A model generated the notes under the pieces. The model was given only the letters and a program-made list of their open reading frames with translations. It had not been told where the DNA came from and ran no database searches. Below, piece by piece: positions 33,092 to 33,281 of a DNA stretch of 64,000 nucleotides. A program made the position numbers and the translations under genes. The DNA is from Eledone cirrhosa (lineage: Eukaryota), in NCBI GenBank assembly GCA_964016885.1, contig OZ024760.1, positions 24,924,001 to 24,988,000 on the forward strand. The letters run 5' to 3'. Position 1 is the stretch's first letter; each line of letters starts with the position of its first letter.

Positions 33092-33281
33092 AGGAACAAG
33101 TATGACGCCGGCGGCAGAGCTCAAGCCGTTTCGAAGTCTAATTCAGTCCAGAATTAGCCGTCGAAACGGCTTGAGCTCTGCCGTCGGGGTCATACTTGTT
33201 CCTATTATCCACTTTACTACCCTAAGTATTGAGTACTTTGGTGCGTTATGGTCCATCTGGTTCTTTACCATATTTCCTTCC
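33092..33281. mobile_element. Fold-back repeat carrying an HHR 3' half (other copies 36447-36640, 36700-36907, 42179-42330, 54716-54775)
   Basis: Inverted arms 33092-33144/33151-33203; right arm agccgtc-GAAACGGC-ttgagctct-GCCGTC-ggggtc. Confidence 0.8.

Follow-up and report, generated by a model that had tools for sequence, protein, structure and literature searches.

PLEs with a C-terminal endonuclease are the closest described relatives of the element analysed here, and those of the Hydra clade are marked by an RWK motif, DKT for DKG, a CxCX5C linker, and CxxC and CxH around the E/N (PMC8557442). A fold-back architecture, consisting of an inverted truncated copy, a tail and TA targets, is standard for PLEs. 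The transcription start of Penelope sits in the pLTR (PMC2377424). The origin of the junctions between the two copies is either left open in PLE papers or put down to self-priming on an antisense template with resolution by the endonuclease (PMC8557442; PMC3846280; PMC2377424); for palindromic junctions, Arkhipova et al. (2013, PMC3846280) suggested self-priming on an antisense template and left the matter open. In vitro, the protein of the anole element PAc (Poseidon of Anolis carolinensis) cleaves both strands and extends them, and it is predicted to dimerize; two internal RT start sites bound its tail, its target is AT-rich and its pLTR contains a hammerhead (Frangieh et al. 2024, PMC11167929). 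As far as the accessible text of that study goes, priming proceeded without homology to the target, and the ribozyme cut was not the endpoint of any read (PMC11167929). Two further findings bear on the junctions described below: hammerheads with a U3–A8 core occur naturally and are active in vitro (Perreault et al. 2011, PMC3088659), and an extra G derived from the mRNA cap is known at junctions made by L1 (PMC11702581). In the text available to us, the origins of the PLE inverted copy and tail and the in vivo role of the hammerhead are stated to be open (PMC8557442, PMC3846280, PMC11167929).

Fold-back copies in the window and their parent element

The window is the whole 64,000-nucleotide stretch analysed (C21:24,924,001-24,988,000), from a 3.0-Gb animal genome with abundant (TA)n arrays. 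Element positions are numbered on the ORF-coding strand, with the hammerhead cleavage base C17 as 0. In the focal copy, the inverted short-end arm (33092..33144, minus strand) runs from element +19 back to -34, and the long-end arm (33145..33284, plus strand) runs from -40 to +99, includes a tail of ~80 nt and ends in (TA)n. The 3' half of a hammerhead occupies 33155..33190 (plus strand) and comprises the stem II 3' strand, GAAA (33163), stem III with its palindromic loop, GUC (C17 at 33185) and the stem I 3' strand. Two more fold-backs lie at 36446..36639 (long-end arm on the minus strand, 36446-36578; short-end arm on the plus strand from -41, 36579-36639) and at 36699..36903, a young copy (long-end arm on the minus strand, 36699-36839; short-end arm on the plus strand, 36840-36903), whose flanking 13-bp direct repeat (36687-36699 and 36907-36919) may be a target duplication. 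An old, decayed fold-back at 42179..42332, its arms 72% alike and with no tail seen, is related to an older family, family B. There is also a solo short-end arm at 54716..54775 (plus strand, -39 to +20) within a long (TA)n array and a solo tail fragment of the focal hairpin family at 40335..40393 (minus strand, about +49 to +99). The fold-backs flagged in the first-pass annotation at 33092, 36524, 36774 and 42179 are real, with unequal arms and differing junctions, and 54716 is a solo arm. That annotation had also read the arms as the GAAA half of a hammerhead, and indeed each right arm contains the stem II 3' strand, GAAAC, stem III, GTC and GGG in order; as it stated, no window copy of the focal family has a CUGANGA half.

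Among 30 close matches to one window copy, many continue past the apex and expose an autonomous parent: a 3,118-nt repeat unit with an ORF of RT and GIY-YIG type and a complete hammerhead fold in a 3' UTR of ~0.9 kb. In L061, the parental ORF is a 786-aa stop-to-stop frame with its first ATG near +194, and its protein carries FDIE..YRDD followed by a C-terminal VIY..YIG..F..R..H..E..N pattern; we called the RT and the subsequent GIY-YIG domain from these motifs. The protein also contains RWR (RWK in 9 aligned homologues), DKT, CNCxxxxxC, CNLC and CKH, and 2,219 homologues were found. Neither Pfam nor the PDB sequences returned a match to the parental ORF, and the Hydra-clade assignment was made by setting the motifs against the published description (Craig et al. 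2021, PMC8557442). Judged by these sequence motifs, the hairpins are 5'-truncated insertions of an autonomous PLE with Hydra-clade protein features, and the parental ORF bears out the earlier assignment of the family to PLEs. The expected parts of a PLE insertion, namely a pLTR partial tandem, an inverted 5'-truncated copy and a one-ended tail, are present in L061, L119, L013 and L102, and at least 10 nt of TA flank each side of 82 of the 104 fold-backs.

The parent folds as a type I hammerhead, with three stems around the core and an NUH cut site (a three-way junction fold), and its stem II encloses a 37-nt loop (-67..-31). Parental copies with the other ribozyme half, which the first-pass annotation had predicted, do exist (L002, L061); their 5' core half is UUGAGAA or UUGAUAA (family core UUGA(G/U/C)AA), not the CUGANGA it expected. 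Of 19 aligned copies, 14 have the UUGANAA (U3–A8) core, 4 have C3 with A8 and 1 has C8. The U3–A8 core explains why CUGANGA was not seen. In the same 19 copies 94.7% of cells are paired, and one stem II pair is compensatory between the focal family (family A) and family B; because the sequences are related, both observations lend the fold modest support. Rfam returned no hammerhead match for the parent sequence and no hammerhead among the 150 listed of 583 window matches. Self-cleavage of the parental ribozyme is suggested indirectly, by arm ends that peak exactly at +1. The read-through copies L038, L134, L161 and L176 have the C3 with A8 core mismatch and are expected to be less active.

The hairpins are extremely abundant: a 32-nt tail word has 19,437 exact matches in the genome, far beyond chance, while the reversed control has 0. 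The earlier claim that the inversions are recurrent is correct. In three contig sets (of unspecified kind, and uninformative on expression), coverage of the short region greatly exceeds that of the ORF, and both fold-back and jump junctions recur in independent contigs. The copy at 36531 has a sub-threshold miRNA match in Rfam.

Several other features share the window. A U6 snRNA pseudogene without its 5' stem lies inside (TA)n at 35199-35302 (plus strand; 56.9 bits, over the Rfam cut-off). A decayed non-LTR retroelement at 10693-13300 (minus strand) retains RT fragments, a C-terminal CxxC..H..C zinc knuckle and an RHD motif; we take it to be of the restriction-endonuclease-like type. Repeated CUGANGA...GAAA motifs at 981 (minus), 32862 (minus), 39755 (plus), 40719 (minus), 60800 (minus) and 60406/60534 resemble the ends of other hammerhead-bearing repeats, and those at 60406 (minus) and 60534 (plus) form an inverted pair. 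An assembly gap of 200 bases of N spans 45440-45640.

Arm ends in loop II and at the ribozyme cut

To describe the ends, we used the first 100 tail-word matches on contig 1, from which 98 long arms were parsed; 26 of these had no parsed neighbouring inverted arm and were excluded from the paired counts (n=72). The junction lists consist of the first matches along the largest contigs, a non-random choice, and were tallied by hand. Long arms end at +99 and inverted arms at +20 (67/73 aligned), both overlapping the target by TA or TAT, and the median fold-back measures 196 bp. The inner ends of 54/98 long arms and 55/72 inverted arms fall within -46..-32, and only 8/98 long arms extend beyond this zone. 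Their main peak is at A-40, and a smaller one is at +1. The apex is thus located in loop II near -40, ~10 nt 5' of the stem II 3' strand and 40 nt 5' of the cut, and not at the stem II hairpin, where the first-pass annotation had placed it. At the outer ends, where most flanks consist purely of TA, 12/104 fold-backs have an informative flank repeat and there is no fixed target duplication. L022, L025, L142 and L145 have direct repeats of flanking DNA of 46-86 bp or longer on both sides, possibly long target duplications. At the apex of L020, L080, L090 and L133, 7 to 17 A/T bases follow -40/-43, which suggests that the RT adds terminal A or slips where the RNA ends.

The base that precedes A-40 carries a distinctive signature. 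Genome-wide, A-40 is preceded by a non-T base in 6,308 arms, and the first 100 of these have G in 48, C in 44 and A in 8. At the control position -39 (4,466 arms), G was found in 16/100 (p = 2e-6 against -40), and at -44 (3,035 arms) in 7/100 (p = 4e-11). The read-through arms (4,764) have T in 86, C in 14 and G in 0 of 100 at -41, and the G before A-40 is consequently not parental. A parental G allele at -41 was rejected, with 0/100 in both families. Family B keeps TTAGT at the same distance while the remainder of its loop differs; 880 of its arms start at this point, with G in 35/100, and G is found in 0/100 of its read-through arms (161). In L128, L143, L148 and L152, the partner arm could not have supplied the extra G; many other G cases are ambiguous with the partner arm's sequence. 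C before A-40 is as common as G (44/100 in family A, 53/100 in family B), and most of the C cases inspected are either the base that the partner arm itself carries or a C variant of the parent.

We infer that A-40, which lies at 33145 (plus strand) of the focal copy in a TTAGT/TCAGT context, is probably a capped Pol II start within hammerhead loop II. The TTAGT/TCAGT around it resembles an animal initiator (Inr). A TATA-like word is present 29 nt upstream in family A and absent from family B, and no DPE-like motif was found by eye at the expected place, +28..+32. A second capped start at A-44 was considered and rejected, given G in only 7/100; we tentatively attribute the ~3,000 arms that seem to reach -44 to A-tailing and microhomology.

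Fewer arms end at the cut. A purine precedes +1 in 1,088 arms; ~17/30 of those inspected truly start there, and the others are point changes. For the 416 loci with both ends near the cut, a hand tally of the first 50 gave 28 with both ends at +1, 6 with one at +1 and one at +2/+3, 10 with a GTC centre, 1 symmetric at -2 and 5 unclear. Junctions with a single central base separate the two classes of end. Between two -40 ends (287 loci), this base is C/G in 42 of the first 50, also in subfamilies whose read-through parents have T, which is the opposite of the template's usual prediction; between two +1 ends (76 loci), it is A/T in 39/50, where the template would give C/G (p = 5e-10 for the difference). 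Since +1 ends gain A/T and not G, the G is not a general end addition of the RT. The simplest reading of these sequences is that ribozyme-cut, uncapped RNA may also be copied, yielding the minor +1 class.

A second abundant fold-back family, family C, has a compact canonical hammerhead (CUGAUGA, GAAA, GUA cut, palindromic loop III), for which Rfam returned no hammerhead match in the copy searched. It is found in the window at 31986, 35380 and 40418 (plus strand) and 42412 (minus strand), and in the loci L044, L047, L059, L067, L077, L083, L101, L104 and L236. Of its 37 arms, 20 fold at most 30 nt 5' of the core; two copies that read through, L101 and L236, carry TATAAATA ~30 nt before the fold point. 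These few copies fit an apex whose position depends on the start site and not on stem II.

One cDNA or two

The first-pass annotation had proposed that nascent cDNA snaps back at stem II and primes itself, and had presented this as a possibly undescribed route; self-priming had in fact been put forward earlier for inverted PLE junctions (Arkhipova et al. 2013, PMC3846280). Of the 72 paired copies, with microhomology allowed, 26 have an inverted arm that extends further upstream than the long arm, 13 show the opposite, and 33 have arms of about equal reach. A snap-back copy must be a sub-copy of the long arm, and the frequency with which the inverted arm extends further upstream means that it cannot generally be such a copy. 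In L061, the arm ending at +99 measures 0.83 kb and the arm ending at +20 measures 5.0 kb; L007, L013 and L097 resemble it, and L119 shows the reverse. The arms of L085, L099, L124 and L220 do not overlap at all. Snap-back at stem II is not supported: inner ends carry an extra G in loop II or sit at the cut site, and family C in the same window has its apex 5' of the core and not in stem II.

We consider it probable that two cDNAs each run to the 5' end of a sense RNA and are then joined head to head. In the mechanism we propose, the two cDNAs would be primed on opposite strands of a (TA)n target, with start sites 79 nt apart, and both would run off the capped or ribozyme-cut 5' end of the RNA before their ends are joined head to head. 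A transcript starting at A-40 in loop II would begin with the GAAA half alone and carry a complete ribozyme nowhere but at its 3' end, and RNA cut by the ribozyme in vivo would be the source of the +1 ends. As the unit is terminally redundant, both priming sites also occur 60 and 140 nt from the cap. Priming at these 5'-proximal sites could yield the very common mini-insertions of ~200 bp, and priming at the 3' copies the long inverted insertions. L102, L112 and L216 contain jumps from -39/-43 or +1 into the ORF, and such template jumps from the RNA 5' end could produce the partial tandems that form pLTRs. Three tandem copies of the -43..+213 segment lie at L112:4314-4974, and each begins anew at the putative 5' end of the RNA; the tandem arrays called non-LTR retrozymes might be seeded in this manner.

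In the comparison that the first-pass annotation had suggested, the two arms of one copy resemble each other more than they resemble those of other copies: they share subfamily variants and differ by 0.45 within a copy and by 2.0 between copies, in a set that includes loci picked for similarity to one copy. No mixed-subfamily arm pair was found. Because subfamilies may differ in their time of activity, arm concordance cannot separate one RNA from two; it fits two cDNAs made from the same RNA or RNA pool, as the anole in vitro data would suggest by analogy.

The main rival is that a single cDNA leaves the RNA at its 5' end or stalls, then folds back and copies itself to +20, the asymmetry arising from later deletions or flips of the apex. 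It would predict the 33/72 near-symmetric junctions and the subfamily variants common to both arms of a copy; with the parental C variant, a 4-5-bp hairpin can be drawn at one recurrent junction, and L016 shows a perfect 15-bp palindrome where it is truncated internally. Once inserted, a palindrome may have its apex deleted or inverted; some of the asymmetry could be of this origin, and later apex deletions may have shaped single copies. Against it stand the 26/72 copies with the longer inverted arm, the four loci without overlap, the apex away from stem II and kilobase inverted arms with sequence that is missing from the long arm (L061, L013, L007, L097). In loci of subfamilies with parental T at -41, moreover, the extra base is found on the short arm in 6/10 and on the long arm in 4/10. 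We judge this reading improbable overall, and unlikely as the sole route.

Somewhat less probable still is that two cDNAs are joined and -40 is a processing point (a 3' splice site or lariat branch in TTTCATTTAG, or small-RNA-guided slicing) or an RT block. The stretch from -46 to -39 does resemble a splice acceptor, TTAG is also kept in family B, and an intron lies close to the start of D. virilis Penelope (PMC2377424). However, no constant upstream exon is joined to the arms (46 and 30 contexts inspected), the end falls before the A of AG rather than after it, and uncapped +1 ends gain A/T rather than G. We give very little credence to the hairpins being their own non-autonomous element, MITE-like or copied from a palindromic master. 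The constancy of their outer ends, their narrow size range and their great abundance would suit such an element, yet their junctions vary between copies, their outer ends are unequal (+99, +20) and identical to those of kilobase insertions bearing the ORF, and every subfamily, as well as family B, shows the pattern again. A MITE-like element as the main source of the hairpins is refuted by the unequal ends, the variable junctions and the absence of fixed target duplication; with no fixed equal TIRs and no constant interior, the MITE alternative named in the first-pass annotation fails.

Returning to the two joined cDNAs, we tentatively extend the scheme to PLE integration as a whole, a generalization in which we have well under even confidence. 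Integration might be an obligatory double priming, in which a dimer initiates a pair of overlapping cDNAs at two fixed positions of a single sense RNA and fuses the pair head to head; this would explain the inverted pLTR, the tail and, by jumps off the capped end, the pLTR. In the lineage analysed here the promoter would lie inside loop II, and the half-hammerhead at the 5' end could be cut in trans by the half in the 3' UTR, which would remove the cap or set free RNA of unit length. The mini-hairpins, in their tens of thousands, would then preserve both capped and cut 5' ends.

Comparison with known retroelements

Thousands of independent junctions, which read the template's 5' end base by base, are likely to be a genomic record of PLE copying. 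They argue for a sense, capped template and against the published antisense self-priming, and, read from DNA alone, they offer putative in vivo evidence that ribozyme-cut RNA is retrotransposed. The analysis is applicable to any PLE-rich genome, where hairpins of this type are readily mis-annotated as miRNA precursors or MITEs. In the literature searched, which consisted mostly of open-access papers, cap-G or cut-site ends were not described for PLE fold-backs, and the accessible parts of PMC13282606, PMC6155905 and bioRxiv 10.64898/2026.07.22.740005 held nothing on fold-back junctions.

Like the Hydra-clade elements as described, the parent has a single ORF with an RT followed by a GIY-YIG-type domain, the same protein motifs, (TA)n targeting, a hammerhead and a unit of ~3 kb (PMC8557442). 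It departs from them in its non-canonical U3–A8 core, long loop II, 3.1-kb unit and ~0.9-kb 3' UTR, in a tail of ~80 nt against the 30-40 described, and in that most focal copies are ~200-bp fold-backs (PMC8557442). The putative focal ribozyme shares its core and the palindromic stem-loop III, which allows dimers, with U3–A8 type I hammerheads (PMC3088659). Head-to-head arms of which one is 3'-extended, partial tandems and palindromic junctions are as in the known PLE insertion unit (PMC8557442; PMC3846280; PMC2377424). In contrast to the published reading of that unit, the focal inner ends map to putative 5' ends of sense-strand RNA, and either arm can be the longer one. The focal element would resemble PAc in its two start sites bounding the tail and the extension of both strands, and it shares the AT-rich target and the hammerhead in the pLTR (PMC11167929). 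It differs in its minor class of ends exactly at the cut, and the PAc text, in the parts accessible, does not tie dual priming to the inverted copy (PMC11167929). Priming in PAc needed no target homology, whereas both focal ends overlap the target by TA or TAT; this point and the lack of PAc reads ending at the ribozyme cut count against the mechanism proposed here.

In L1 twin priming, primers on opposite target strands give rise to a 5' inversion. The focal junctions are similar to those of L1 in that an extra G would mark copying through the cap (PMC11702581). The two cDNAs of L1 cover different parts of the RNA, whereas those proposed here would overlap and start at two fixed sites.
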